NCBI GenBank assembly: GCA_015486375.1
Contig: WFRR01000173.1
Location: forward strand, 1-44,537
Length of the DNA stretch: 44,537 bases
Origin: Thiotrichaceae bacterium
GTDB lineage: Bacteria > Pseudomonadota > Gammaproteobacteria > Thiotrichales > Thiotrichaceae
Direction: 5' to 3'
The first letter of the stretch is position 1; every line of letters begins with the position of its first letter. A program made the position numbers and the translations under genes. The notes below the pieces were generated by a model, which was not told where the DNA came from, ran no database searches, and was given only the letters and a program-made list of their open reading frames with translations. Below are positions 2,069-39,342 of this stretch, one piece after another.

Positions 2069-2884
2069 ATGCAAATAAGACAAATCATTGATCCACGTTA
2101 TTATCAATTAGCCGTACAAAGCAGCTTGCTCATTTGGGGTATGATTTATCTAGATTTTTCCCTTGATGTGAGTGCCATTACCAGTGTTATAGGCTGTGCA
2201 TTACTGGTACAGATTCTGTTTACTCGATACTACCAACTCAATTTTAATTCACTGAGTGCTATTAATTCTAGCATGTCCATTTTATTGTTATTACATGCCA
2301 GTCATTTTGCGTGGTTAGCCTTAGCTATTGCGCTTGCCATTGCTAGTAAATTTGTCTTACGTTGGAATAATCGCCATATCTTTAATCCTTCGAATATCGG
2401 TATTGTTGCTGTTTTACTCTTCAGTGACTCAACATGGCTTGCCTCTGGGCAATGGGGACACTCTTTATGGTGGGGTTTACTGTTATTAGGTTTGGGCTTG
2501 AGTTTATTTATTGGTTTATCCCGCTTATTAAGCAGTGTAAGTTTTTTAGTTTTTTTTGCGAGTCTCATTTTTCTACGCGCTCTTTGGTTAGGGGATAATT
2601 TAAGTATTCCAATACATCAATTGCAAAATGGCGCATTATTAATTTTTAGTTTTTTTATGTTGTCTGATCCTATGACAAGTCCTAATTCTGCAACAGGTCG
2701 AGTGATGTTTGGTGGCTTACTAGCATTGATTGCATGGGTATTACAATTTACTTTTTATATTCCCAATGCTTTTTTATATGCACTTGCCCTATCTTCACCT
2801 TTAGTCATTGTGATTAATAGAATTTCTTGGGGCAAATATTATCATTGGTCTCAAACACTCACTCGGAGCAAATTATGCGAGTAA
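2069..2884 (+). CDS. Polytopic inner-membrane protein, short NqrB/RnfD-family-like
   Basis: About 8 hydrophobic helices. The 'FFMLSDPMTSP' motif resembles the FFM(x)TDP(x)T signature I remember for the NqrB/RnfD/RnfE family. At 271 aa it is shorter than canonical RnfD. Its 3' end overlaps the start of the next gene by 10 nt. Confidence 0.5.
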   Translation: MQIRQIIDPRYYQLAVQSSLLIWGMIYLDFSLDVSAITSVIGCALLVQILFTRYYQLNFNSLSAINSSMSILLLLHASHFAWLALAIALAIASKFVLRWNNRHIFNPSNIGIVAVLLFSDSTWLASGQWGHSLWWGLLLLGLGLSLFIGLSRLLSSVSFLVFFASLIFLRALWLGDNLSIPIHQLQNGALLIFSFFMLSDPMTSPNSATGRVMFGGLLALIAWVLQFTFYIPNAFLYALALSSPLVIVINRISWGKYYHWSQTLTRSKLCE

Positions 2885-4245
2885 AACCCCTTTATTTTTT
2901 TACGATTTTATTGCTATTTAGTAGCTTAAACAATGCCTATGCCTTTTGCGGCTTCTATGTAGCAAAAGCCAGTAGCGATTTATTTAACCAATCTTCGCAA
3001 GTGGTCATGGTACGAGACGGCTCACGTAATATTGTCACAATGTCGAGTGATTTTAAAGGCAATGTAAATGAGTTTGCAATGGTCATGCCTGTTCCCACTG
3101 TCTTAAAACGGGAACAAATTCATGTCACAGATAATAAAATCATTGAGCATTTAGACAGTTATTCTGCACCGCGCTTAGTGGAGTATTTTGATGAAAATCC
3201 TTGTTCTCCTCCTGTGATGTATAAAATGATGCCAATGGCAGCACCTGCAATGAAATCAGATTCTGCTACGGTTAAAAAACGCGCGCGCAGTCTTGGTGTG
3301 ACGATTGAAGCGCAATATACCGTGGGTGAATATGACATTATGTTGCTATCAGCTCAACAAAGTGGTGGATTGCTGACGTGGTTAACGGAACAAGGTTATA
3401 AATTACCACAAGGTGCAGATGCGGTTGTTGGTAGTTATTTAAAACAAAAGATGAAATTCTTTGTCGCAAAGGTTAATCTGAAAAAGTTTAATCAATCAGG
3501 CTATACCCGTTTACGTCCTATTCAAATCGCTTATGATTATTCCCGTTTTATGTTGCCAATTCGATTAGGTACAGTCAATAGTCAAGGACAACAAGAACTA
3601 TTTATTTATGCACTCAGTCGCCAAGGGCGCATTGAAACTACCAACTACCGTACGGTTAAACTCCCCAGTGAAATTGAAATTCCAAGCTATATAAAAACGC
3701 AAAATAAATTCGCCGATTTTTATCGTGACATGTTCCGTACTCAAGTTAAGAAGCAAAATAATAAAGCGGTATTTCTTGAATATGCTTGGGATATGAACTG
3801 GTGTGATCCCTGTGCGGCTGATCCTTTATCCAATAAAGAATTAAGAGAATTAGGCGTATTTTGGGTGAATGAAGCAAGCAATAAACCCCAAATATCACAA
3901 CGTCGTCGCCCACCACAGCAAGGGCAAAATGTTTATCTAAGTCGTTTACATGTTCGTTATGACCGTCATAATTTTCCTGAAGATTTACTGTTTCAAAATA
4001 CAGCTAATCGTGAAAACTTCCAAGGGCGTTATATTATTCGTCATGCTTGGAAGGGAACAGAACAATGCAATGCGGCAAATCAATACTTTAAAAGTTTAAC
4101 TAAACGTCAGAATCAGCGTGCTAAAAATTTATCCAATTTAACAGGCTGGAATATAAACGATATTCAGAAAACAATGCAAATACCGCAACGCTCAGCTTCA
4201 AGTTCCAATGAAGATATGTGGTGGAAAGATTTATGGTCGCAGTAA
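2875..4245 (+). CDS. Exported DUF2330-like protein
   Basis: ATG at 2875 is preceded by GGAG at 2865-2868. Signal peptide MRVKPLYFFTILLLFSSLNNAYA. The N-terminal 'FCGFYVAK…MVMPVP' block matches my memory of DUF2330. The ORF track's longer start at 2827 lacks an RBS and would overlap the upstream gene further. Confidence 0.6.
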   Translation: MRVKPLYFFTILLLFSSLNNAYAFCGFYVAKASSDLFNQSSQVVMVRDGSRNIVTMSSDFKGNVNEFAMVMPVPTVLKREQIHVTDNKIIEHLDSYSAPRLVEYFDENPCSPPVMYKMMPMAAPAMKSDSATVKKRARSLGVTIEAQYTVGEYDIMLLSAQQSGGLLTWLTEQGYKLPQGADAVVGSYLKQKMKFFVAKVNLKKFNQSGYTRLRPIQIAYDYSRFMLPIRLGTVNSQGQQELFIYALSRQGRIETTNYRTVKLPSEIEIPSYIKTQNKFADFYRDMFRTQVKKQNNKAVFLEYAWDMNWCDPCAADPLSNKELRELGVFWVNEASNKPQISQRRRPPQQGQNVYLSRLHVRYDRHNFPEDLLFQNTANRENFQGRYIIRHAWKGTEQCNAANQYFKSLTKRQNQRAKNLSNLTGWNINDIQKTMQIPQRSASSSNEDMWWKDLWSQ

Positions 4246-11802: not shown

Positions 11803-14800
11803 TTATTTTTTAGTACGGAGTTGTGTTACCCAATCCAATTTAGCTCGCGAAATTTTAGACAGTTTGTTTAATTCCTTACCTATATATTCAATATTATCCA
11901 CAATACGTTGAGTAACCTCAGCAGACTGTTGACCTGCTTGTTGTTTAGTTTGAAAATTTTGTTTGATTTGCTTCCAGCGTTTCTGTTGTTCTACGCTCAT
12001 ATTGCCGCGAAGTTCTGCTAATTTAAGTAAATTTTCTTCTGCACCTTGGGTGAGTAATTGCGCTTCACCTAGATAGTGATCATGGGTCATTTGCAACAGT
12101 TCTTGTTTATTCATCACTGCGGAGACTTTCTCAACCATTTTATTCATATTGCGATAGCTACCTTGTAACTTAAAGGCAGGCTCAGTACGATATTCATCCG
12201 CTTGTGCAGCGGAGGCAATATATTGTTGATTGACTTTTAATACTAATACTTGAATCTGTAATAGTTTCTTAAATACTTCTACAATTTCATTACGTTCTGC
12301 CCCACTATAGTCATAATTTAAAGCACTACTATTGACGTTTTTACCTTTTGCCATATCAATCAGTAAATAGGTATCTGCCATATCACGTACAGCTAGTGGT
12401 GCTAAAATAGGGTTAGAGGTTAAGCTATTTTCAATATAACTGAGTGAAAAGGCTTCTTCTGCTCCGCCGAGAATATCACCTAAATTATAAATATCTGCAC
12501 GATTAGCTAACATATCAGGGATTTTGAAAGCTTCGCCTGATTCGGTATAAGGATTACCCGCCATAACAATACAAAATTTCTTACCGCGCATATCATAGGT
12601 TTTAGCGCGTTCTTTCCAGACTCCTTCAATACGACGGGTTGCATCACTCAGGGAAATAAATTTCTGCAAAAATTCTGCATTGGTATGTTGTATATCATCT
12701 AAATACAACATAAGATTATTGCCCATTTCTAAGCCCATATTCAGCTTTTTCAATTCTTGCCGTGAAGCAGAATCAGGTGCTTGGCTAGGGTCAAGTGACA
12801 CGACACTATGCCCGAGTGAAGGACAATTAATCTTCATAAAGATCAAGCCTAAACGATTAGCAACATACTCCATTAAAGTGGTTTTACCATAACCTGGAGG
12901 TGAAATCATCATTAATAAACCCATTAAATCCGAACGCTTATTCTCACCTACCGTTCCCATTTGTTTAGCTAAATTATCGCCAATCATGGGCAGGTATTGT
13001 TCATTAATAAGTCGATTACGCACAAAGGAAGATAAGGGTCGAGCTTTGAATTCTTCTAAACGTAAAGCTTCACGTTGTTCATTGATAATACGACTACGCA
13101 ATTGATGGTAGCGATAAAATTGGGGAATAACAATTTCTTGATGATGTTGATATTGTAGTAAAAAACGATCTAAACCTAAATGTAAGCATTGCTGATCAAT
13201 TTTGGGATGTTCTCCCATTAAATCGACAACCTTAAATTCTAATGCTGTCTTATTTTCTCGTAAGGTAATCTGTGGTGCAATTAATAAAGCAATCGTTTCA
13301 GGAATATAATGTAGATAATTGTTTGGATCAGTAGCACTTAACATTGCCTGTAACCATGCGGAAATTAACTGCCATTGTTGGGTATAATCATCACCTAATT
13401 TTTCTAAGGCAATTTTAAAATCTTGCCAAATACGCGAAATATCTAACTTACGACGTAATTGATCTAATAGTTGTGTGGCATATAGACTACTTACAAAGGT
13501 TTTATCCGCACGGGCAAGTTCTTGACTTAAATAATCTGCGGCATAATTTACAGTCAGTGAACGAGCTTCAATAATAGAGTGGGTGTCTAAAAAGCAATTT
13601 AATTCGCCTTGTATTTCTTGTTTTAATAAGTCATAAGCATCACTACAAGTAAAAACTGTTTGCATTTGAGCCGCTGATTTTGCTCGTTTTCGCCATGTAC
13701 GTTGTAGATTTTGATTTTTAGTCACAGCCCAGAATACACGGGCTAAACCGCGTTGCAAGGGATCAAAACGTAATAATTCTGCGGCACTGCGAATGGGTAA
13801 AATTTGAGTAATAATTTTAGCCGCATCATAATCATGAATCCCTTTTTCATAACCCTCTTTATAACGTGGAGCAGTAAAGGCTGTAATGGTTTTTAATAAT
13901 TGTTGAGGTTGACTAACTTGTTGCTGTAATTGTTCAAGATTAAAAATGACTGCATTATCGCTATCATTTTGGCTATTTTGACCCTCATGCTTATTTCTAT
14001 TACTTTCTGCGGCAGCTAGTATTTGTCCTGCTAAATATTCAGCCCGATAAAACTGAGGTGTTTCTGAAACTAATGCTTGTTGCCAATAATCTTGACTGTC
14101 ATTTAGTTCAGGAATATCGATAGCTTCAAAGAAATCCGTCCCCGTAAGATGAATATGTAAACGATTATTACGGGGCAATAAAGTAATGTCTAACGCTTGG
14201 GTATTGACACTAAAACGGTGCTTTTTACCCAGCCTAATAATATTACCACCTGATTCATAAATCTCAGATTTGTCCCGTAAACTCCGAAAAGCTTGATCTT
14301 GATTAGATTTTAAGCGGGATTCAATATCATCTGCTTTAACACTGTCGTCCAAGTCTCGTAGTGTTGCAGCAATACTACGTGCTTTGATAATCAGTGGATC
14401 AGAAACGTAGAAAGTATTTAAACTATCAACATCATTAAACTTTTCCCCTCGGCGTTGAATTGAACTTAAAATACGCTTGGCGGCATCCAGTAAATTTTGG
14501 GCTTTACGTTGACGTTCGTCTACTAAGACTTGTTTGTGTGCTTCAAAGGTTTCATAAACTTCATCGCGTTTAGTCATAATATCGCTAAGAAATTCATCAA
14601 ATTCACTAAACTGACTTTCAATTTCTTCAAGCTGAATCAGGAGACGACTGAGTTGTTCATCAGTTTTATCAGGGTCGGTCGATAAGCTCAGTGCATTGGC
14701 AATGCCTTGTCCAAATAGTTTAAATTGTGCTGAAAATTGTGCAATAGACTCAGCCGAACCCAAGTCTTTTTGTTTATGTTTAGCCCGAGCTTTACTTTGA

Positions 14801-16896
14801 TTCAGCCTAGAATATAGCTCAGAAATAGCCTCGATAATCACCGTGCGAACGGTGGCATCATCCACGCTTAAGGTCGTCATTAATTCAGATAATAAATCCA
14901 AATCCGCTGACATTTTATTTAAACCCTGCAATGGTTCATCTAATTGTGTGCGGGTCTTTACGGCTTCTAATTGTTGTTCTAATAGAATTAAATTGTCATT
15001 ATAAGGTGTTAAGGCTTGCTCACTGGAAAGAAAGGCAACCGTATCATCACCAAGTCGCTCTTGGGCTTGAAGCAGTTGTTGATCCAATTTTTCAATCTGC
15101 ACTTGATCAATATAACGATAAGCTTTAATGGTAATTAAATGCCCACGTTGTTGCCGAATTTGAGTGAGTGCATCAACAAATTCTTCTACTTTTTGCCAAC
15201 CATCAGGTAATAAACGGGCAATTAATTCTTTTTGCTGTGCTTGTGCATATTGGATCGCATCAATGGCTTTTTTACGGATGGATTCGACTTTTTCAAACTC
15301 ATCCAAAACTAATTCAGATGTTTGAGCAATTTCATGCAAACTTTGATTAATTGTGCCGAGTCGCGCTTTATTCAGCCAGTAATAGCTATCAAATAAACGC
15401 CGACTATTATTGATTAACTGCGTGTACCTCGGTACAGAAATGGTTTTATTATCGATTTCTCGGGCAATACTGTATAAATCAGAAATGCCACGTACTAACT
15501 CATTATTACCAATTTTGGCGTAAAAGCTATGTCCAACACTTTGCTGACTGGCATATTCCTCTGAGGTAAATGGTGTTTGCCAGATTTGCATAGGATGAGT
15601 ACGGGTTGCCGTTTCACCTTCTGCATTGAAAATAACCATAGTGCCATTATCTAAAATGGCATAGCCATGTCCAAATAGTGGATTTTGTAAACTTTTATTA
15701 ATTAAATTATAAGAATATAGGGCTGATTCACCTGCTTCAGGGCGATAAAAAATATAAACAATATCTTCCCCGTTGGGAGAAATAATGGCACGCTTAAACT
15801 GTAATTCATGCGTATCATCATTGAATTGTTTAAATGCTCCATCTTGTAAATACATTCCTCCTGGAAAAATAATTCCATGATTTTCAGGTAATTGTATACA
15901 GGATTCACCAATTGCATCAATGCGTTGCACATCACGGGTAATACGATTAAAAACTAAATAACGCCACTGTTCCTCATGATAAGGTAAAATCTTTAATAAA
16001 ATTAATTGCCCTATTTCTGCATAGTAGATTTTACCATCGTCTAAAGATTGGTTTTTATCCTCGACTTCTTCTGCATAAATCCCCAAGCCCGACAGAGTAT
16101 TATTTTCAACCTTAACGGTTAAATCACCCCCCACTGTTTCTACAAAGATATGATCAAGGATATTGACATGCGGATGACGACCATTAACCTGATGTTCGCG
16201 TCCTGTTTCTACCCAATCAAAATCATAACGTTGCGGTAAAGCAATTTCACGCTCACCTCGATTATCAATATAGTTAATCGTATGTAAGCCTTCTGAACTG
16301 GGGGGTTCAATTTGCCAACGAAATACGCGAATATCGGTGAGTTTATTACCAATTTGGAAGGATGCTAATAAACGATTGTTTTTCACAATCAATTGAATCA
16401 GCTTTGCGCCTTTGTAATAGGTATACAGTTCTTTAAAATCTTGTTGAAAATGGGGTTCACTTAGAAAAGTATCCGTGAAATTCACCGCTTCCATTTCATA
16501 ACTAGCAGCTTTAGCACTGGATTTACCCGTACTATCGATATTTTCAGCACTGCTAGAATTGCTTTGCTTAACTAAGCGATACAGTGAAAATACATCTTCA
16601 ATATGAGTTTCTTTTTTTAAACCCATAAACACATTATAGGCAAATAATAAATAATCCCCCACAGGTACAATATCACGGGCAATACAATTATTTTTAGTGC
16701 GAACCCGCAAACGTCCAATCACTGCCATATCAGAATTACCAAACTCTGCTAAGCGTGCCTGATTTAATTCGTTGACAGCGTCGGTAAGTTGCTGACCTTG
16801 CATTTCTAAACGCTGACGAATAATGCCATAAGCACCGCCTTCTGCAACGGCTTGGTCTGTCAGGCTTTGCTCAGATGTAGATAGGGAATCAGACAT
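11803..16896 (-). CDS. Giant (1697 aa) protein of unknown function with a single C-terminal AAA_5/MoxR-type ATPase module
   Basis: Uninterrupted 5.1-kb ORF. Walker A ISPPGYGKTTL (~aa 1330; DNA ~12876-12893). Walker B LMLYLDDIQ. Sensor-1-like CIVMAGNPYTE. 'IPDMLANRADIY' resembles the AAA_5 C-terminal block. The N-terminal ~1300 aa has no P-loop or other recognisable motif: a β-rich region, then long helical/coiled-coil stretches. It is co-directional with, and 62 bp downstream of, the flotillin gene. Confidence 0.85.
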   Translation of the reverse strand: MSDSLSTSEQSLTDQAVAEGGAYGIIRQRLEMQGQQLTDAVNELNQARLAEFGNSDMAVIGRLRVRTKNNCIARDIVPVGDYLLFAYNVFMGLKKETHIEDVFSLYRLVKQSNSSSAENIDSTGKSSAKAASYEMEAVNFTDTFLSEPHFQQDFKELYTYYKGAKLIQLIVKNNRLLASFQIGNKLTDIRVFRWQIEPPSSEGLHTINYIDNRGEREIALPQRYDFDWVETGREHQVNGRHPHVNILDHIFVETVGGDLTVKVENNTLSGLGIYAEEVEDKNQSLDDGKIYYAEIGQLILLKILPYHEEQWRYLVFNRITRDVQRIDAIGESCIQLPENHGIIFPGGMYLQDGAFKQFNDDTHELQFKRAIISPNGEDIVYIFYRPEAGESALYSYNLINKSLQNPLFGHGYAILDNGTMVIFNAEGETATRTHPMQIWQTPFTSEEYASQQSVGHSFYAKIGNNELVRGISDLYSIAREIDNKTISVPRYTQLINNSRRLFDSYYWLNKARLGTINQSLHEIAQTSELVLDEFEKVESIRKKAIDAIQYAQAQQKELIARLLPDGWQKVEEFVDALTQIRQQRGHLITIKAYRYIDQVQIEKLDQQLLQAQERLGDDTVAFLSSEQALTPYNDNLILLEQQLEAVKTRTQLDEPLQGLNKMSADLDLLSELMTTLSVDDATVRTVIIEAISELYSRLNQSKARAKHKQKDLGSAESIAQFSAQFKLFGQGIANALSLSTDPDKTDEQLSRLLIQLEEIESQFSEFDEFLSDIMTKRDEVYETFEAHKQVLVDERQRKAQNLLDAAKRILSSIQRRGEKFNDVDSLNTFYVSDPLIIKARSIAATLRDLDDSVKADDIESRLKSNQDQAFRSLRDKSEIYESGGNIIRLGKKHRFSVNTQALDITLLPRNNRLHIHLTGTDFFEAIDIPELNDSQDYWQQALVSETPQFYRAEYLAGQILAAAESNRNKHEGQNSQNDSDNAVIFNLEQLQQQVSQPQQLLKTITAFTAPRYKEGYEKGIHDYDAAKIITQILPIRSAAELLRFDPLQRGLARVFWAVTKNQNLQRTWRKRAKSAAQMQTVFTCSDAYDLLKQEIQGELNCFLDTHSIIEARSLTVNYAADYLSQELARADKTFVSSLYATQLLDQLRRKLDISRIWQDFKIALEKLGDDYTQQWQLISAWLQAMLSATDPNNYLHYIPETIALLIAPQITLRENKTALEFKVVDLMGEHPKIDQQCLHLGLDRFLLQYQHHQEIVIPQFYRYHQLRSRIINEQREALRLEEFKARPLSSFVRNRLINEQYLPMIGDNLAKQMGTVGENKRSDLMGLLMMISPPGYGKTTLMEYVANRLGLIFMKINCPSLGHSVVSLDPSQAPDSASRQELKKLNMGLEMGNNLMLYLDDIQHTNAEFLQKFISLSDATRRIEGVWKERAKTYDMRGKKFCIVMAGNPYTESGEAFKIPDMLANRADIYNLGDILGGAEEAFSLSYIENSLTSNPILAPLAVRDMADTYLLIDMAKGKNVNSSALNYDYSGAERNEIVEVFKKLLQIQVLVLKVNQQYIASAAQADEYRTEPAFKLQGSYRNMNKMVEKVSAVMNKQELLQMTHDHYLGEAQLLTQGAEENLLKLAELRGNMSVEQQKRWKQIKQNFQTKQQAGQQSAEVTQRIVDNIEYIGKELNKLSKISRAKLDWVTQLRTKK

Positions 16897-16958: not shown

Positions 16959-18890
16959 TTATTTATCTAAAAATTTACCAATGAGTTTCTGTAAATCAGG
17001 GCTTTTGGATACTGCACCTTCAATAGATTTACCTAAAGAGAGTGAACGTGCAAAGGATTTAAAATAATCCCCTTCTCCACCAACAATATCAATATTGGCC
17101 TTAGATAGTGCTGTCGCAAGGACTTTAGCTTGATCAGCGGCAATCACTTTGCTGGCATCAATTTCTGCTAAGGTTTGTTCTAGGTTTTTCTCTAACTTCA
17201 TACGGAATTCTTCATGCTCACGAGCCGTATCACTCATCTGTGCCATTGCATTAAATTTCTCGATTAAACCATCTGCTTCAGCTTTAAACTGTTCACGGGT
17301 AACATTGGCTTCGGCTAAACCCATATTATTCGTCCCTTTAGCTTCTGCATCCATCTTTTCTTCCATCACTCGTGCTTCCATCAAGCCTTGTTTTTCCTCT
17401 GCAATCGCCTTCGCTTCAATACCTTGGGCTTCGGCTTCCATTTTATGTTGTAAAACATTGGCTTCGGCGAGACCTTCTTTTTCCATTGCAATCGCATTGG
17501 CTTGTTTAACATTTGCTTTAGCCAGCCCTGAAGCTGCCTCTTCAGCTTGAGTGCCTTCGGCTAATTGTTTTTTTGCATCCGTTGCTTTTGCAGCAACTTC
17601 TAATTCTGCTTGAGCAATGGTATTGAGTTCTTTAGCCCGATAAGTTGATTTAACTTCATCGGCTTCAGCTTGTTTAACTTGCTTAACTAAGCCTTCTTCT
17701 GCTTCTGCTTCCGCTGCAATAATTTGTGCGCGTTTAGCGCGTTCTGCTTCAGAAATAACGCGGACTTCTTTAATTTTCTCTTCTTGCTCAGCAACAGTTT
17801 TTTCAACGGCAATTCGCTCTCGAATTACATTAGCAATTTCTTTTTTCTCGTGTTCTAAGGCTTTTTCTTTTTCAATACTCTGAATTTCAACTTCACGCTC
17901 TCTGGCAACAATTTCTAAGTCGCGCGCTTTTTGTACCCGTTCCTCTTCAATCGCGACGGCACGAAGACGATTATTTTCAGCCACTTCAATTTCGCGGTGC
18001 ATATTTTCTTCACGAACTTGTAGCTGCTCTTCTGTTTCAATATAAGCTTGTTGTGAACGTAGACGCTCTTCCTCTTGGACTTTCTTTGTTTCCGCTTCTT
18101 CACGGGCTTGAATACTGGAAACCTCACGCGCTTGCTTTGCTTCTGCATCAGCCTGCTGACGCTCTAATGCCAACATGGATTCACGAGTTTCTACATTCTT
18201 TTTCTTAATTGCTAGCTCTTCATTCTTTTCAAATTCATTAGTTTTGATATTTTGAATGGCGGTTAATTCAGTGATTTTACGAATACCTTCCGAATCCATA
18301 ATATTATTGAAATCTAATGAAGATTTAGGTGTTTGTTCCAAATAATCAATCGCAACATCTTCAAGAATATAACCATTAAGATCATCACCAATGACTTCAA
18401 TAATCTTGTCACGAAAAGCAATACGGTTTTCAAATAAGTCTACAAAATTAAGTTGTTTACCAACCGTTTTCAGAGCTTCTGAGAATTTTGCATTAAATAA
18501 TTCATTTACCGCATCACGATCAGAAGCACGATCTGCACCAATAGACTTAGCCACTTTGAGCACATCTTCTTGAGTTTCATTAACACGTAAATAAAAGGCA
18601 ACTACAATGTCAGCCCGAATATTATCGCGACAAATCAAGCCATCTTTGCTTTTACGGGATAGCTCCATCGTAATTAAGGAAATTTTCATTAATTCTTTTT
18701 TATTAATGATTGGCCAGACAATCCCACCTGTAAATTTAACTTTTGGGGTTCGAGAAGTATCATTGATAATCAACGCCCAGCCTTGCTGAACTTTAACATA
18801 GAACATGGCAAAACCCATGATCGCTCCCACCAGTATCAAGGCAAAAATGCCAACAACGGTAAAGATTAGAATAGTGAGGGTGCTTTCCAT
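16959..18890 (-). CDS. Flotillin-family SPFH/band-7 protein (YqiK-like)
   Basis: N-terminal TM helix, then an SPFH domain, then a long Glu/Ala-rich coiled coil (EA repeats) typical of flotillins. 643 aa. AAGGAA RBS 7 nt upstream. 21 bp downstream of the NfeD-like gene. Confidence 0.85.
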   Translation of the reverse strand: MESTLTILIFTVVGIFALILVGAIMGFAMFYVKVQQGWALIINDTSRTPKVKFTGGIVWPIINKKELMKISLITMELSRKSKDGLICRDNIRADIVVAFYLRVNETQEDVLKVAKSIGADRASDRDAVNELFNAKFSEALKTVGKQLNFVDLFENRIAFRDKIIEVIGDDLNGYILEDVAIDYLEQTPKSSLDFNNIMDSEGIRKITELTAIQNIKTNEFEKNEELAIKKKNVETRESMLALERQQADAEAKQAREVSSIQAREEAETKKVQEEERLRSQQAYIETEEQLQVREENMHREIEVAENNRLRAVAIEEERVQKARDLEIVAREREVEIQSIEKEKALEHEKKEIANVIRERIAVEKTVAEQEEKIKEVRVISEAERAKRAQIIAAEAEAEEGLVKQVKQAEADEVKSTYRAKELNTIAQAELEVAAKATDAKKQLAEGTQAEEAASGLAKANVKQANAIAMEKEGLAEANVLQHKMEAEAQGIEAKAIAEEKQGLMEARVMEEKMDAEAKGTNNMGLAEANVTREQFKAEADGLIEKFNAMAQMSDTAREHEEFRMKLEKNLEQTLAEIDASKVIAADQAKVLATALSKANIDIVGGEGDYFKSFARSLSLGKSIEGAVSKSPDLQKLIGKFLDK

Positions 18891-18911: not shown

Positions 18912-19532
18912 TTATTGTTTTGCAGTAACCAGATAGGTATGTTGACCAGCGTTATATTTCTTTAAAGTAACTGAATTGCCTCGTTGCAAGGTATTAACAT
19001 GTTCACAACGTATTTTCAAAATTAAGCCTGCCCCCCCATCATTAAATTTAGCTTCACCAAAATTCGCCGTGACTTTTGAACTCCGTACAATAGCTGTTTT
19101 TCCGATAATATCCTGAGAACTTTGAGCATTGTGTCCTTTAAATAATGGTTTTAAAGGCGTAATAATTATTGCGACCAGCGGTGCAGTTAGCAATGGCGTG
19201 AGAATAATAATCCATATGCCTAATACAACCCGTAACCACTCTGCATTAATTTGTGTACTAAAGTGATACACCATTAAAAAACACAGTAGCCATGATAATA
19301 AAATAATTAGCGATAGTGAAATAGTGACAGGTACACCCTCTAACTTAAATTTATTTAGAAAGCTTCCCAATAAGCTGAAGTCAGACTCTCCATCTGCATC
19401 GAGATCAACATCCAGTACATCCAGATCAAAAAAACCAATCACTGAGAATAGCCAGTAAATGGTCACAATGGCTAATAAACCTGTGTAAAGTGCGGTGGGG
19501 AAAGTGAACGAAATGTGTATAAAATTTTCCAT
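18912..19532 (-). CDS. NfeD/YqiJ-like membrane protein (flotillin partner)
   Basis: 206 aa. Hydrophobic N-terminal half with 3-4 TM segments. C-terminal soluble β-rich OB-like tail (…GKTAIVRS…GAGLILKIR…). Size and arrangement match E. coli yqiJ-yqiK. Confidence 0.7.
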   Translation of the reverse strand: MENFIHISFTFPTALYTGLLAIVTIYWLFSVIGFFDLDVLDVDLDADGESDFSLLGSFLNKFKLEGVPVTISLSLIILLSWLLCFLMVYHFSTQINAEWLRVVLGIWIIILTPLLTAPLVAIIITPLKPLFKGHNAQSSQDIIGKTAIVRSSKVTANFGEAKFNDGGAGLILKIRCEHVNTLQRGNSVTLKKYNAGQHTYLVTAKQ

Positions 19533-19740
19533 TGCGCTATCTCAGAAACCTATGTCGTCGATGATCATACAAGGGTATACCCTTTATTTTATTGTTTTTT
19601 ATATTTGCTGTAGAGTTTAGTCTAGTTCGAGTAAAAATCAGCAGCTTGTTCTATTGTTAGACAACTTGCCTATTCAAGTGTCGTGATAGGAGTTCTGATA
19701 TTATCAGATGTCTCTAAACTGACTCCATTTAAGACAACTC

Positions 19741-20844
19741 ATGGATTTAAACCAATTTCCTAGTACCGATACATGGCAAGAATTACTTGTTAATGATACC
19801 CCTTTATTGGATGTTCGCGCTCCCATTGAATTTGATAATGGTGCATTTCCACAGGCGGTTAATTTACCGCTAATGGATGATAATGACCGTGAAGCCATTG
19901 GCATTTGCTATAAACAATCAGGGCAAGCTGCTGCGATTAAATTAGGAGAAAATCGGGTTAAGGGCGGCATTAAAGCCCAGCGTGTACAAGAATGGGTTAA
20001 CTTTATTGAAGCCAATCCAAACGCAGTTTTATACTGTTTTCGAGGTGGACTACGTTCTAAAATTACACAACTCTGGATTTATGAAGCAACGGGTAAAATC
20101 ATTCCTCGGGTTGAGGGTGGTTACAAAATGTTACGTCGTTTCCTCTTAGACTCGATTGATACCTCCATGCAAAAAATTGACGCAACCATCTTAAGTGGAC
20201 GAACAGGTTCAGGAAAAACACGCTTATTGTATGAACTCGACGATATGATTGATTTGGAAGGTTTAGCTAATCATCGCGGTTCAGCCTTTGGACGTACAAC
20301 TACCCCGCAGCCGACCCCCATTAGCTTTGAAAATGCATTAGCAATTCAATTATTAAAACAGTTGCAACAAGGTAAAACGCAATTAGTGTTTGAAGATGAA
20401 AGCCGTAATATTGGCTCATTACATTTACCTCAAGGTTTTTTTGAACAATTAAAGCAAGCGAAAATCGTGGTACTGCAAACGACTGATTCACAAAGGATTG
20501 ATATTTCTATCCAAGAATATATTACTGATATGGAAATTGCATGGCAGCAACTAGGTAAAGGTTTTAGTGAATTTTCTGAATATCTATTATCTAGCTTAAT
20601 ACGGATAAAAAAACGCCTCGGTGCAGTACGTTATCAAGATTTATATACTCAAATGCAATACGCCTTAGAACTACACCAACAACAGGGTGATTTATCTATT
20701 TATCGTGACATTATTGGAAAAATCTTAATACAATATTATGACCCAATGTATGATTATCAATTAGATAAAAAACAAGAACGGGTGGTTTTTTCGGGTAATA
20801 AGCAGGCAGTGATTAAGTATCTTAACGCATTGGGTATTCAATAA
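19741..20844 (+). CDS. mnmH: tRNA 2-selenouridine/geranyl-2-thiouridine synthase
   Basis: N-terminal rhodanese domain aligning to E. coli YbbB (TPLLDVRAPIEFDNGAFPQAVNLPLM…ICYKQ). Active-site Cys in CFRGGLRS. P-loop GRTGSGKT. Confidence 0.9.
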   Translation: MDLNQFPSTDTWQELLVNDTPLLDVRAPIEFDNGAFPQAVNLPLMDDNDREAIGICYKQSGQAAAIKLGENRVKGGIKAQRVQEWVNFIEANPNAVLYCFRGGLRSKITQLWIYEATGKIIPRVEGGYKMLRRFLLDSIDTSMQKIDATILSGRTGSGKTRLLYELDDMIDLEGLANHRGSAFGRTTTPQPTPISFENALAIQLLKQLQQGKTQLVFEDESRNIGSLHLPQGFFEQLKQAKIVVLQTTDSQRIDISIQEYITDMEIAWQQLGKGFSEFSEYLLSSLIRIKKRLGAVRYQDLYTQMQYALELHQQQGDLSIYRDIIGKILIQYYDPMYDYQLDKKQERVVFSGNKQAVIKYLNALGIQ

Positions 20845-22202
20845 TGGCAAAAGTAAAAACTCGTTACAATTGTACTCAGTGCGGTACACAACATCCCAAA
20901 TGGGCAGGGCAATGCAATGATTGTGGTGAATGGAATACTTTAGAAGAAGTTGTTGCTGAAGCCAGTAAGCCGACTAATTCCCGTTTTGCAGGCTATTCAG
21001 GTGAAGTCACCCGTATCCAGACCTTAAAAGATGTCAGTTTAGCGGAGCATCCCCGTATCTCCACCAAGATGTTAGAACTGGATCGTGTTTTAGGAGGGGG
21101 TTTAGTACAGGGTTCAGTGGTATTAATTGGGGGTGATCCGGGCATTGGTAAATCAACTATTTTGATTCAAGCACTGGCGAGTTTTTCCAAATTAAAAAGC
21201 TTATATGTCACGGGAGAAGAATCTTTACAGCAGGTGAGTTTACGAGCGAAGCGATTGGAGCTGCCTTTAGATAATTTACGTTTACTCACAGAAACCAGTG
21301 TTGAGCAAATTTTGGCACAGGTTAAATTAGAAAAACCTGAATTAATGGTGATTGATTCTATTCAAACCATTTACACAGAACATTTACAATCTGCACCAGG
21401 GTCGGTTAGTCAAATTCGTGAAGCAACCGCCCAGTTAACCCGTTTTGCTAAACAAAGTAATACCGCTATGTTTATTGTCGGACATGTGACTAAAGAAGGT
21501 ACATTAGCGGGACCACGAGTATTAGAACATATGGTTGATACCGTACTGTATTTTGAGGGTAACCCCGGAGAACGCTACCGTATTTTACGTGCGGTTAAAA
21601 ACCGCTTTGGAGCAGTCAATGAACTGGGTGTTTTTGCAATGACCGATAAGGGTTTAAAAGAAGTGAGCAACCCTTCTGCTATCTTCTTGTCTCGGCATGA
21701 AGAACCTGTTTCTGGCAGTGTCATTATGGTGACACGAGAAGGCACACGGCCCTTATTAGTCGAAGTTCAAGCATTGGTGGATGAAAGTCATGGTGCAATG
21801 CCAAGGCGGGTTGCCTTGGGGCTTGAGCAAAATCGGATGGCGATGTTATTGGCGGTGATGCACCGTCATGGTGGTATTTCAATGTTTGATCAAGATGTCT
21901 TTGTCAATGTGGTGGGGGGAGTTAAAATCACAGAAACTGCCGCAGATTTACCTTTATTAATTTCAGCCTTTTCGAGTTTTCGGAATAAACCCTTAGCTCA
22001 AGATATGGTGATGTTTGGTGAAGTTGGTTTAGCAGGAGAAATTCGTCCAGTGCCAAATGGTGAAGAACGTTTAAAAGAAGCAGTAAAACATGGCTTTAAA
22101 CGGGCAATTGTACCGAAGTTAAATCAACCCCAGAAAAAAATTAAGGGTTTAGAAATTTTTGCAGCACAGCGATTGCAAGATGTTGTGGCGTATTTGTGCT
22201 AG
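20844..22202 (+). CDS. radA: DNA repair protein RadA/Sms
   Basis: C4 zinc finger CTQCG…CNDCGEW. Walker A GGDPGIGKST. KNRFG motif (AVKNRFGA). Lon-like C-terminal domain. 452 aa. Its ATG overlaps the mnmH stop (TAATG). Confidence 0.95.
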   Translation: MAKVKTRYNCTQCGTQHPKWAGQCNDCGEWNTLEEVVAEASKPTNSRFAGYSGEVTRIQTLKDVSLAEHPRISTKMLELDRVLGGGLVQGSVVLIGGDPGIGKSTILIQALASFSKLKSLYVTGEESLQQVSLRAKRLELPLDNLRLLTETSVEQILAQVKLEKPELMVIDSIQTIYTEHLQSAPGSVSQIREATAQLTRFAKQSNTAMFIVGHVTKEGTLAGPRVLEHMVDTVLYFEGNPGERYRILRAVKNRFGAVNELGVFAMTDKGLKEVSNPSAIFLSRHEEPVSGSVIMVTREGTRPLLVEVQALVDESHGAMPRRVALGLEQNRMAMLLAVMHRHGGISMFDQDVFVNVVGGVKITETAADLPLLISAFSSFRNKPLAQDMVMFGEVGLAGEIRPVPNGEERLKEAVKHGFKRAIVPKLNQPQKKIKGLEIFAAQRLQDVVAYLC

Positions 22203-33233: not shown

Positions 33234-33848
33234 ATGAAACTTCCTGTTCTTGCGCTTGGTTTATTATTTTCCGTTGCCTCTATTTCTGCTAATGCATGTA
33301 GTAAAAATGAGGTTGATCACTATTTAAAAAGTGGCTTTACTCATGCTCAAGTTGTAAAACTATGTGCAGGTAAAAGCAATAACAATGCAATGATTACTGC
33401 ACCTGCTAAAGATATTCGTCCTCTGGCAACCTCACCCTATGCGAGTAATACTAATGATCAAATATTTTTTAAATCTGCGATCAAAGCACATAAAACTGAA
33501 ATGTCAGCGGATAAGTTAGTCTACTTTAATAATGAGTGTATGGATTTTGGGCTTGAAGATATGACGGGTGAAAAAGAACGTCTCTGTCGTGATGTAAAAA
33601 CAACAGTTCACTATACAGGCTTAAGTTTAATTCAAACCCAAAAAGAAATTCCTTTAATCCAAAAATCACATTTAATCATGAAAGGAAATATTAAACGTGA
33701 ATTATTACAACCAGATAGCATCCCTAATCGTCATAAGAAAGCCTTTTTTGAAGATTTTGCAACCGCACCTGCAAGTATTGATATTCCTTTCAGAAAGGGT
33801 TTTGACCCTAAACAAATTGCGAGCCGTTTGATGAACTATGCACGCTAA
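33234..33848 (+). CDS. Exported hypothetical protein
   Basis: 204-aa ORF with a cleavable signal peptide (MKLPVLALGLLFSVASISANA). Several Cys residues. No motif recognised. Confidence 0.5.
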   Translation: MKLPVLALGLLFSVASISANACSKNEVDHYLKSGFTHAQVVKLCAGKSNNNAMITAPAKDIRPLATSPYASNTNDQIFFKSAIKAHKTEMSADKLVYFNNECMDFGLEDMTGEKERLCRDVKTTVHYTGLSLIQTQKEIPLIQKSHLIMKGNIKRELLQPDSIPNRHKKAFFEDFATAPASIDIPFRKGFDPKQIASRLMNYAR

Positions 33849-38463: not shown

Positions 38464-39342
38464 TTATTGATCTTTTACAAAGTCTACATCGAAAGTATTG
38501 AGAACTAGCATTAATAGTTGAAAGAACTTATCTTCCGTACCATCAATTGATCGTCTAATCCAAAATCCAGAACAGACAGCGGTTTCATATACATCATAAC
38601 CTTGCGTTTCCATCGAATCAGAAAAATTTCTAAACGATTCCTGTAAAAAAAGACTGGGAGGAATATTGGACGAAGTTTTTTGTGATATAAAACTTGAAGC
38701 TGCACTAGATGAGGGTGCTGTTTTATCAATAGCAGATAAATATCCATTTATCACTGTTTGCTTATTAGCAGCAGGTTTATAACTTAAGAAAAAGGTTCTT
38801 AGATATTGTTTTAACTCATTATCATAAAATGGTTGAATATTAGCAATGAGTGCTTTATTGCCGAAAATCTGTGCCAAGATTTTATGAGTTTTCAATAAAA
38901 AATTAGGATTATAGTGACCAAACTCTGTTGCATTGGTATAGCTAATTCCCTGCTTATGCGTTTCGTTCAAGAATACTTTTTCTCCGACGATACTTTCAAG
39001 CATTGCGATGCTGATTACTTTCTTGGCTATTTGATAGCGACCCCTAATACCACTTTCAGGTATCCAGCTTTGTATACTTTCGTAATCTAATTCTGTGTCA
39101 TTGTGCATTTTTTCCCACTGGGTCGCCATAACATTTATTTTTTCACTTAATTCTTTTACTGGCTTTTCAGATTCTGGAATATTGATGTTGTTGTCAGTTT
39201 TTACTTCTTGTTGATTGGTTACTTTCGTTATCTGTTCTTTTGTCTCTTGCTTTAGGTTGTCCTCTTTAAAAAAGATAAAGGCTGCAAAAAATAATATAGA
39301 AATAACGATTGCTAGAATGATATAAGTTTTTGTTTTTAACAT
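38464..39342 (-). CDS. Membrane-anchored hypothetical protein in the polysaccharide gene neighbourhood
   Basis: 292-aa ORF with an N-terminal TM anchor (YIILAIVISILFFAAFIFF) and a predicted periplasmic remainder. No motif recognised. Confidence 0.5.
   Translation of the reverse strand: MLKTKTYIILAIVISILFFAAFIFFKEDNLKQETKEQITKVTNQQEVKTDNNINIPESEKPVKELSEKINVMATQWEKMHNDTELDYESIQSWIPESGIRGRYQIAKKVISIAMLESIVGEKVFLNETHKQGISYTNATEFGHYNPNFLLKTHKILAQIFGNKALIANIQPFYDNELKQYLRTFFLSYKPAANKQTVINGYLSAIDKTAPSSSAASSFISQKTSSNIPPSLFLQESFRNFSDSMETQGYDVYETAVCSGFWIRRSIDGTEDKFFQLLMLVLNTFDVDFVKDQ

Follow-up and report, generated by a model that had tools for sequence, protein, structure and literature searches.

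Two published descriptions come closest to the system considered here. In Pseudomonas aeruginosa, the 'biofilm-associated cluster' bacABCDEF was found by reverse transcription PCR to be co-transcribed, a sigma-54 promoter was proposed for it, and in a bacA mutant the BacB to BacF proteins were increased 6- to 13.5-fold (PMC10948618). Its fifth gene, bacE (PA3728/PA14_16190), is among the genes most altered in an rsmA mutant (PMC8855297). Ravi et al. (2024, mSystems; PMC11237479) delineated an operon class with a CesT/Tir(DUF2170)-PspA dyad, a transmembrane (TM) protein of the YqiJ/YuaF type, a flotillin, an AAA+ protein and sometimes a PLD hydrolase. The giant partner in this class, exemplified by Dokdonia donghaensis, combines a beta-propeller, a coiled coil and an AAA-ATPase; abbreviated flotillin/YqiJ/AAA+ operons were reported to be more widely distributed, and ATP-dependent membrane remodelling or chaperone-like assembly was suggested as the function (PMC11237479). 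The present work concerns a gene for a giant AAA+ protein located at positions 11803-16896 on the minus strand of a 44,537-nucleotide stretch of DNA from a Thiotrichaceae bacterium (contig WFRR01000173.1 of assembly GCA_015486375.1); this whole stretch is referred to below as the window.

The window locus resembles the P. aeruginosa operon in the domains of the giant protein and in the gene order YqiJ-like protein, flotillin, giant protein. The P. aeruginosa operon adds to these BacA (DUF2170/CesT-like), BacB (PspA), BacF (PLDc_2) and the proposed sigma-54 promoter, whereas the window holds the three-gene core. With the operon class of Ravi et al. it shares the architecture of the giant protein, the neighbouring genes and the arrangement that those authors call 'abbreviated'. 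Their description is purely comparative-genomic and takes the mechanism no further than a 'chaperone-like role' or 'ATP-dependent membrane remodeling'.

Family Identity of the Giant Protein

The gene is an uninterrupted open reading frame (ORF) of 1697 aa with an ATG start codon, and its homologues align with the product from residue 1. The N-terminal part matches DUF3686 (PF12458; Pfam title 'ATPase involved in DNA repair') over aa 37-506 (15379-16788; this and all coordinates given below for parts of the giant protein refer to the minus strand), with 632.8 bits against a gathering cutoff of 25 (E=3.2e-190), and DUF7902 (PF25472) over aa 627-710 (14767-15018), with 88.2 bits against a cutoff of 26 (E=4.1e-25). 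The protein aligns over 1683 aa, with 57% identity, to P. aeruginosa P0408, which carries the same Pfam domains, measures 1746 aa and belongs to a cluster of 3222 members. The genes at the P0408 locus encode, in order, a CoA-transferase, DUF2170, PspA, a 213-aa protein, a 688-aa flotillin, P0408, PLDc_2, YaeQ, RecJ and Peptidase_M4, the last of these presumably being lasB. P0408 could be equated with BacE from the gene order given in PMC10948618. As judged from full-length similarity and operon position, the window gene is the orthologue of P. aeruginosa bacE, and we regard the family and operon identification as extremely likely.

The nearest relatives of the window protein are 57-73% identical to it. 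The scored candidates included more than 4434 homologues, mostly carrying the NCBI name 'DNA repair ATPase'. The first 1200 residues used as query retrieved 1320 clusters (50% identity), of which 412 had E <= 1e-30, and full-length representatives of the family measure 1552-2036 aa. No model in NCBIfam matched any of the three proteins of the operon core, and searches of PDB sequences with the single giant protein and with the family profile gave P-loop-level matches only (E > 0.01). The initial annotation had surmised that the family might be undescribed; this does not hold for a family that has an NCBI name, the description by Ravi et al. (2024) and a representative, BacE, in the bac operon. 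The N-terminal region, too, could be placed in a known family, one that is functionally uncharacterised, and our literature search returned no paper addressing the biochemistry of BacE. What is new here is a further member of a family that is known, widespread and described computationally, but experimentally unstudied.

A Conserved Three-Gene Operon

The giant gene is the third of three genes lying on one strand with intergenic gaps of 21 and 62 nucleotides. The first (18912-19532, minus strand) encodes a YqiJ/NfeD-like multi-TM protein of 206 aa, the equivalent of BacC, and the second (16959-18890, minus strand) a YqiK-type flotillin of 643 aa, the equivalent of BacD/PaFlo3, in which a TM helix at aa 4-26 is combined with an SPFH region and a long coiled coil rich in E and A. 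The YqiJ-like protein gave a weak Pfam match to YqiJ_N (E=0.031) and no significant BLASTP match to Escherichia coli YqiJ (E=0.16). Its orthologues in two other loci (L015 and L011) matched YqiJ_N with E=2.6e-5 and 3.6e-5, and the assignment is based on these matches and on gene position. The flotillin matched E. coli YqiK both by BLASTP (E=8e-36, 28% identity over 471 aa) and by hhalign (99.9%), and its relatives are named 'flotillin family protein' or YqiK by their sources. It gave no Pfam match to Band_7, and a flotillin profile search of PDB sequences was also empty.

A scan of a genome collection yielded 21 loci, 18 of them with upstream DNA, the window being counted. The 21 belong to Gamma- and Betaproteobacteria, a Rickettsiales metagenome-assembled genome (MAG), Spirochaetota (two), Bacteroidota (three), Bradymonadaceae and one unclassified bacterial MAG. 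The order YqiJ-like protein, flotillin, giant protein on one strand was found in all 18 loci, which represent at least four phyla and include Gamma- and Betaproteobacteria, the Rickettsiales MAG, Spirochaetota and Bacteroidota, and a reciprocal look-up that started from the flotillin located the giant gene downstream in both cases (Providencia and Corticibacter). None of the other neighbours in the window (apt, an esterase gene, mnmH, radA and others) is conserved across the 18 loci. A gene for PspA/IM30 lies upstream of the triad in seven of the 18 and one for DUF2170 in five. The two also occur together in the operons of P. indica, P. aeruginosa and Corticibacter, and a PLDc_2 gene is added in Pseudomonas.

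Genes for PspA, DUF2170 and PLDc were not found anywhere in the 44.5-kb window. The window locus is therefore the abbreviated three-gene form and not the full six-gene operon of the Bac/PSP type, so that any PspA partner would be encoded elsewhere. A search of the intergenic region 19533-19740 for the sigma-54 consensus gave no site, and promoter and terminator scans performed no better on the window than on shuffled sequence.

Several observations on individual members of the triad were made alongside. Like the window flotillin, which is clearly homologous to E. coli YqiK, 26 of 28 relatives lack a Pfam Band_7 or Flot match; domain-based surveys consequently overlook this flotillin subfamily. 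An antisense ORF of 133 aa lies inside the flotillin gene (17149-17550, plus strand) and similar ones occur in 14 related loci, but the best explanation is that it merely shadows the repetitive coding sequence for the E/A-rich coiled coil and is not a gene. On the P. fluorescens megaplasmid pQBR103 (locus L025, NC_009444.1 86416-103329), the triad is accompanied by a rhomboid gene and by yjfKLMC-like genes (DUF2491, DUF350, DUF1190 and the glutathionylspermidine synthase family), an arrangement that unites both of the PspA-associated operon classes of Ravi et al. In Xanthovirga aplysinae (Bacteroidota, locus L018) three extra ORFs stand between the flotillin and giant genes, one of which (L018:3905-4822) encodes a second SPFH protein (Pfam Band_7, E=2.5e-24), and in Corticibacter populi a gene for a protoglobin-GGDEF diguanylate cyclase (L028:10345-11814) occupies the same interval on the opposite strand.

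Domain Architecture and the AAA+ Module

Two AlphaFold2 models built on 45-sequence alignments covered aa 1-1100 and aa 1000-1697, with mean predicted local distance difference test (pLDDT) values of 75.4 and 78.7, respectively. The predicted order of domains is an N-terminal helix, a beta-propeller, a helical arm of ~420 aa, a helical domain of ~330 aa, the AAA+ module and a helical tail. The DUF3686 region comprises the N-terminal helix (aa 22-52) and a beta-propeller-like domain with strands at aa 58-440, modelled as successive units with approximately four strands per blade at a pLDDT mostly between 75 and 90, and interrupted by an insert (about aa 236-290) for which the model is poor. When the N-terminal region was compared with the PDB using Foldseek, the best matches over ~380-490 columns were beta-propellers (E 9e-5 to 1e-2), namely DCAF1 WD40, CyRPA, TolB, PON1 and prolyl oligopeptidase; large beta-propeller-containing proteins such as IFT-A subunits and Elp1 were further top matches. 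The beta-rich region that the initial annotation had placed at aa 150-450 is hence present, but it is wider, extending from about aa 58 to 440. It is followed by a helical bundle or coiled-coil arm (aa 464-879; 14260-15507), which includes DUF7902 and consists of long helices in the model. Its Q/E/L content reaches 31-39% at aa 501-800, in agreement with the long Q/E/L-rich helical stretches described earlier. After a small modelled beta element at about aa 904-925 comes a compact all-helical domain (aa 947-1281; 13054-14058), which precedes the ATPase and was modelled with a pLDDT of 87-97 over aa ~1020-1270; it has no Pfam match and no non-AAA relative among the top 50 Foldseek matches in the PDB. 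With DUF3686 and DUF7902 covering much of the N-terminal part, and with the propeller and helical domains modelled there, the view that the protein has only one recognisable module has to be abandoned. A motif scan and a hydropathy analysis bore out the claim that the N-terminal part lacks a P-loop and a TM segment: the protein has a single P-loop, no second one being found, and its 19-residue Kyte-Doolittle mean peaks at 1.17, as compared with 2.95 for the flotillin and 2.58 for the YqiJ-like protein. The C-terminal helical tail (aa 1580-1697; 11806-12159) has modelled helices at aa 1597-1630 and 1635-1696 and is variable past aa ~1650, family conservation dropping to 0.26 beyond that residue; it is 50-100 aa shorter than in most relatives, which are mostly 1740-1820 aa long.

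The AAA+ module (aa 1285-1570; 12187-13044) consists of a conserved N-linker, an alpha/beta core, a beta-hairpin before sensor 1 (aa 1422-1435, between alpha3 and the sensor-1 strand in the model) and lid helices. It exceeded the Pfam gathering scores modestly, with 28.3 bits for AAA (PF00004; cutoff 21.2) and 26.2 bits for AAA_5 (PF07728; cutoff 22), while PF07726 gave no match anywhere in the giant protein in the Pfam scan. The motif scan placed Walker A, ISPPGYGKTTL, at aa 1331-1341 (12874-12906) with the catalytic Lys at K1338, and Walker B, LMLYLDD, at aa 1395-1401 (12694-12714) with the acidic pair D1400-D1401. The putative sensor-1 region, VMAGNPYTE (aa 1444-1452, N1448; 12541-12567), was assigned by its position after the fourth core strand of the model, and a candidate arginine-finger region, ANRADIY (aa 1464-1470, R1466; 12487-12507), likewise by position; the conserved N1448 and R1466 lie where such residues would be expected relative to the modelled strands. 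All four motifs fall within the last 367 residues, the placement in the last ~370 residues given by the initial annotation being confirmed.

Conservation of these motifs was assessed in an alignment of 87 full-length members, which is colinear and has few gaps. Walker A reads SPPGYGKTT in all 87, the last T being replaced by S in three, and has a Ser in place of the first Gly of the canonical motif. Walker B is DDIQH in 86 members and DDVQH in the remaining one, so that the DD pair is invariant and the usual Asp-Glu is replaced by Asp-Asp, the catalytic Glu having been exchanged for Asp throughout. GNPY of the putative sensor-1 region is found in 86 of the 87 members (GNPYTE is essentially invariant) and PDML.NR, in the candidate arginine-finger region, in 85. 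Homologues thus keep both the order of the motifs and the Walker residues. The AAA+ module is the best-conserved part of the family; the N-terminal parts of the 87 members are 25-54% identical to that of the window protein, identity over the first 1280 residues going down to 25%. This divergence, combined with near-invariant nucleotide motifs, indicates that the ATPase is under strong selection. We conclude that the protein ends in a genuine AAA+ ATPase module, which is divergent from other AAA+ proteins and strongly conserved within the family.

The stretch directly before Walker A (aa ~1285-1330; ~12907-13044, minus strand), FVRNRLINE.YLP.IGDNLAKQMGTVGENKR, is among the most conserved of the family, but its AlphaFold model has a pLDDT of only 45-67. 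It may serve in contacts between subunits or in the binding of a partner.

Proposed Function and Alternative Explanations

Overall, with family identity and mechanism qualified as given for each, we consider that the giant protein is probably the energy-consuming cytoplasmic subunit of a flotillin-centred membrane module. The mechanism is less secure, and our analysis leaves the balance close to even, if anything slightly against, for the proposal that it consists in ATP-driven remodelling of flotillin/PspA assemblies or in the processing of clients. The protein would oligomerise through its AAA+ module beneath the cytoplasmic membrane, and the propeller and helical arms would dock on the cytoplasm-facing coiled-coil assembly of the flotillin and, where these are present, also on PspA polymers. 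ATP hydrolysis could then drive the assembly, remodelling or disassembly of the scaffolds, or the hand-over of client membrane proteins, in envelope stress, by analogy with Vps4 acting on ESCRT-III and with FtsH inside the HflK/C cage. The mechanochemical function suggested by the initial annotation was judged reasonable. A more specific version, in which the BacE-type protein is a dedicated Vps4-like remodeller of bacterial flotillin (SPFH) cages, is speculative and on balance improbable; here the propeller and arms would coat the flotillin dome on its cytoplasmic side, and the AAA+ ring would spend ATP on opening, recycling or budding the membrane microdomains.

The systems cited as analogies resemble the giant protein in some respects and depart from it in others. 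HflK/C-FtsH likewise pairs an SPFH scaffold, genetically and functionally, with an AAA+ ATPase at the inner membrane; for the giant protein the pairing is seen at the level of the genes. FtsH is a membrane-anchored AAA+ protease of the classic clade, whereas the giant protein lacks both a TM segment and a protease domain and carries an ATPase of another type. With Vps4/ESCRT-III and PspF/PspA it has in common that in many relatives the AAA+ gene lies beside that of PspA, a member of the ESCRT-III superfamily, and the idea of ATP-driven polymer remodelling. Unlike Vps4, it lacks an MIT domain and a classic-clade AAA signature, and its invariant partner is the flotillin, PspA being absent from the window operon.

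A number of points weigh against the proposed function. The mechanism is drawn from gene neighbourhood and analogy. The giant protein has no membrane anchor, and its physical contact with the flotillin is putative. Deletion of the P. aeruginosa flotillin PaFlo3 led to ~20% less biofilm and to no other phenotype (PMC13086221). Given Asp for the catalytic Glu in Walker B, hydrolysis could be slow or regulatory. An aromatic-hydrophobic-Gly pore loop of the unfoldase type was not evident between strand 2 and helix 2, where the conserved loop reads NCPSLGH.V.SLDP.QAP. Finally, no PspA, DUF2170, rhomboid or PLD gene is located near the triad in the window.

The alternative that survives best is membrane-protein quality control, in which the AAA+ protein would extract or unfold clients corralled by flotillin and pass them to a rhomboid or other protease, the substrate being the clients rather than the scaffold, much as in the mitochondrial SLP2-PARL-YME1L system or in HflK/C-FtsH. 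A rhomboid protease gene adjoins the triad in five of the 18 loci, and also in Providencia and on plasmid pQBR103, and the beta-propeller could serve as a client-binding platform; SPFH cages housing AAA+ proteases are, in addition, an established paradigm (HflK/C-FtsH; cited in PMC13086221). Set against this are the lack of a protease domain in the giant protein and of an evident classical pore-loop motif, the absence of the rhomboid gene from the window and from most loci, and an AAA+ module that was not of the FtsH/classic type by any test. We regard quality control as unlikely.

Much less support remains for a classical MoxR-type chaperone, which would act with a VWA partner to insert a cofactor or mature an enzyme complex. 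The initial annotation had called the module MoxR/AAA_5-like, and the AAA+ assignment and the AAA_5 cutoff stood; the Joint Genome Institute (JGI) uses the name 'MoxR-like ATPase' for some members, and the layout F.V.A.NP.E..G....P..L.NR recalls the sensor-1/Arg-finger region of MoxR, MCM and chelatase proteins. NorQ and CbbQ were among the Foldseek matches of the ATPase model, but RuvB, NorQ/CbbQ, MCM, ClpA/X/B and dynein all matched about equally weakly (probability 0.9-1.0, E >= 3e-3, with 0.97-1.0 for RuvB, NorQ and ClpX). What the giant protein shares with MoxR proteins (RavA, NorQ, CbbQ) and with RuvB is the general AAA+ fold, including the beta-hairpin that precedes sensor 1; it differs from them in its DD Walker B and in 1300 additional residues at the N-terminus, and it has neither a VWA partner nor a RuvA/RuvC context. 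As for MoxR specifically, hhalign of the family profile with E. coli RavA returned a probability of 3.4% (E=0.013), no VWA/MIDAS gene occurs in the 18 loci or in annotated operons, and the 1300 extra residues have no counterpart in MoxR proteins. The MoxR explanation is accordingly very improbable.

Large ATPases are common in defence systems, and an anti-phage or conflict system, in which the flotillin/AAA+ pair would sense envelope damage and trigger an effector such as a PLD-family protein, is a further alternative that we rate just as low. Copies on megaplasmids such as pQBR103, the PLD-superfamily gene attached in Pseudomonas and a patchy distribution suggestive of horizontal transfer (PMC13086221) would be in keeping with it. 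The sole match in PADLOC-DB v2, however, was mad8 (E=0.008), which involves the P-loop of the giant protein, and the neighbours gave none. The gene is carried by only 13 of 72,556 plasmid records, several of the 13 being chromosome- or chromid-sized, the neighbourhood in the window is of a housekeeping nature, and conservation is high over the full length, unlike that of fast-evolving defence genes.

A RuvB-like DNA repair ATPase, as the database name has it, is less credible still. Apart from the NCBI and Pfam names, this explanation can point to RuvB chains, which head the Foldseek list, and to E. coli RuvB as the best profile match of the ATPase region (hhalign 93.9%, E=1.5e-7). That match is confined to a stretch of 72 columns running from Walker A to Walker B, and the Foldseek E values equal those of NorQ, MCM and Clp. 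No DNA-binding, nuclease or helicase domain was found in Pfam, NCBIfam and PDB profile searches; the conserved neighbours are all membrane proteins, with no DNA-metabolism gene among them; and radA, the genuine DNA-repair gene of the window, is not kept beside the giant gene elsewhere. Our literature search found no paper on DUF3686/PF12458, none tying flotillin to a 'DNA repair ATPase' and none backing the name. A paper on Shewanella SO1377, where a COG2268 knock-out raised the mutation rate, was considered as the origin of the name and rejected: that locus is a simple yqiJK pair followed by a terminator, and it lacks the giant gene. Lastly, nothing but the unusual length of the gene would suggest an artefact in which two genes had been fused or misassembled, and this explanation can be dismissed because the same colinear architecture recurs in all 87 full-length sequences of 1552-2036 aa, complete genomes included.

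Other Features of the Window

The surroundings of the triad are housekeeping genes, namely mrdA, rodA, apt, mnmH and radA, with apt lying downstream of the triad. The mnmH gene (19741-20844, plus strand; tRNA 2-selenouridine synthase, E=2.4e-146) is divergent from the triad and is followed by the RadA/Sms-like gene (20844-22202, plus strand), two genes from the giant gene. Two overlapping ORFs on the plus strand encode a 271-aa protein (2069-2884) and a DUF2330 protein with a TTG start (2827-4245); the former matches only the C-terminal part of NQR2/RnfD/RnfE and may be truncated or mis-started. No Pfam match was obtained for a 204-aa ORF (33234-33848, plus strand) or for a 292-aa ORF (38464-39342, minus strand), the latter sitting among sugar-nucleotide and glycosyltransferase genes (rmlA/C/B/D-like, Alg14-like and a methyltransferase gene).

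Significance

For the window itself the outcome is mostly a correction, in that the giant protein falls into a known but unstudied family; the points of remaining interest are the 'DNA repair' name, the partnership with flotillin, and the invariant DD Walker B with its conserved pre-Walker A linker. The name 'DNA repair ATPase' seems to lack support and is spreading to thousands of genomes. What bacterial flotillins and most SPFH scaffolds do has been a long-standing question, with deletion phenotypes that are weak, as for PaFlo3 (PMC13086221). The presence of a giant, conserved ATPase gene at every locus examined suggests that this flotillin subfamily works in an energy-consuming machine, one that in many species is wired to genes for PspA (ESCRT-III-like), a rhomboid and a lipid hydrolase. 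A genetically tractable model already exists in P. aeruginosa, where the orthologue is part of an operon that responds to RsmA and is associated with biofilm and virulence. If the Vps4-like cage remodeller were true, no ATP-driven regulator of a flotillin would have been known before the BacE-type protein, which would provide a handle on the role of bacterial flotillins.

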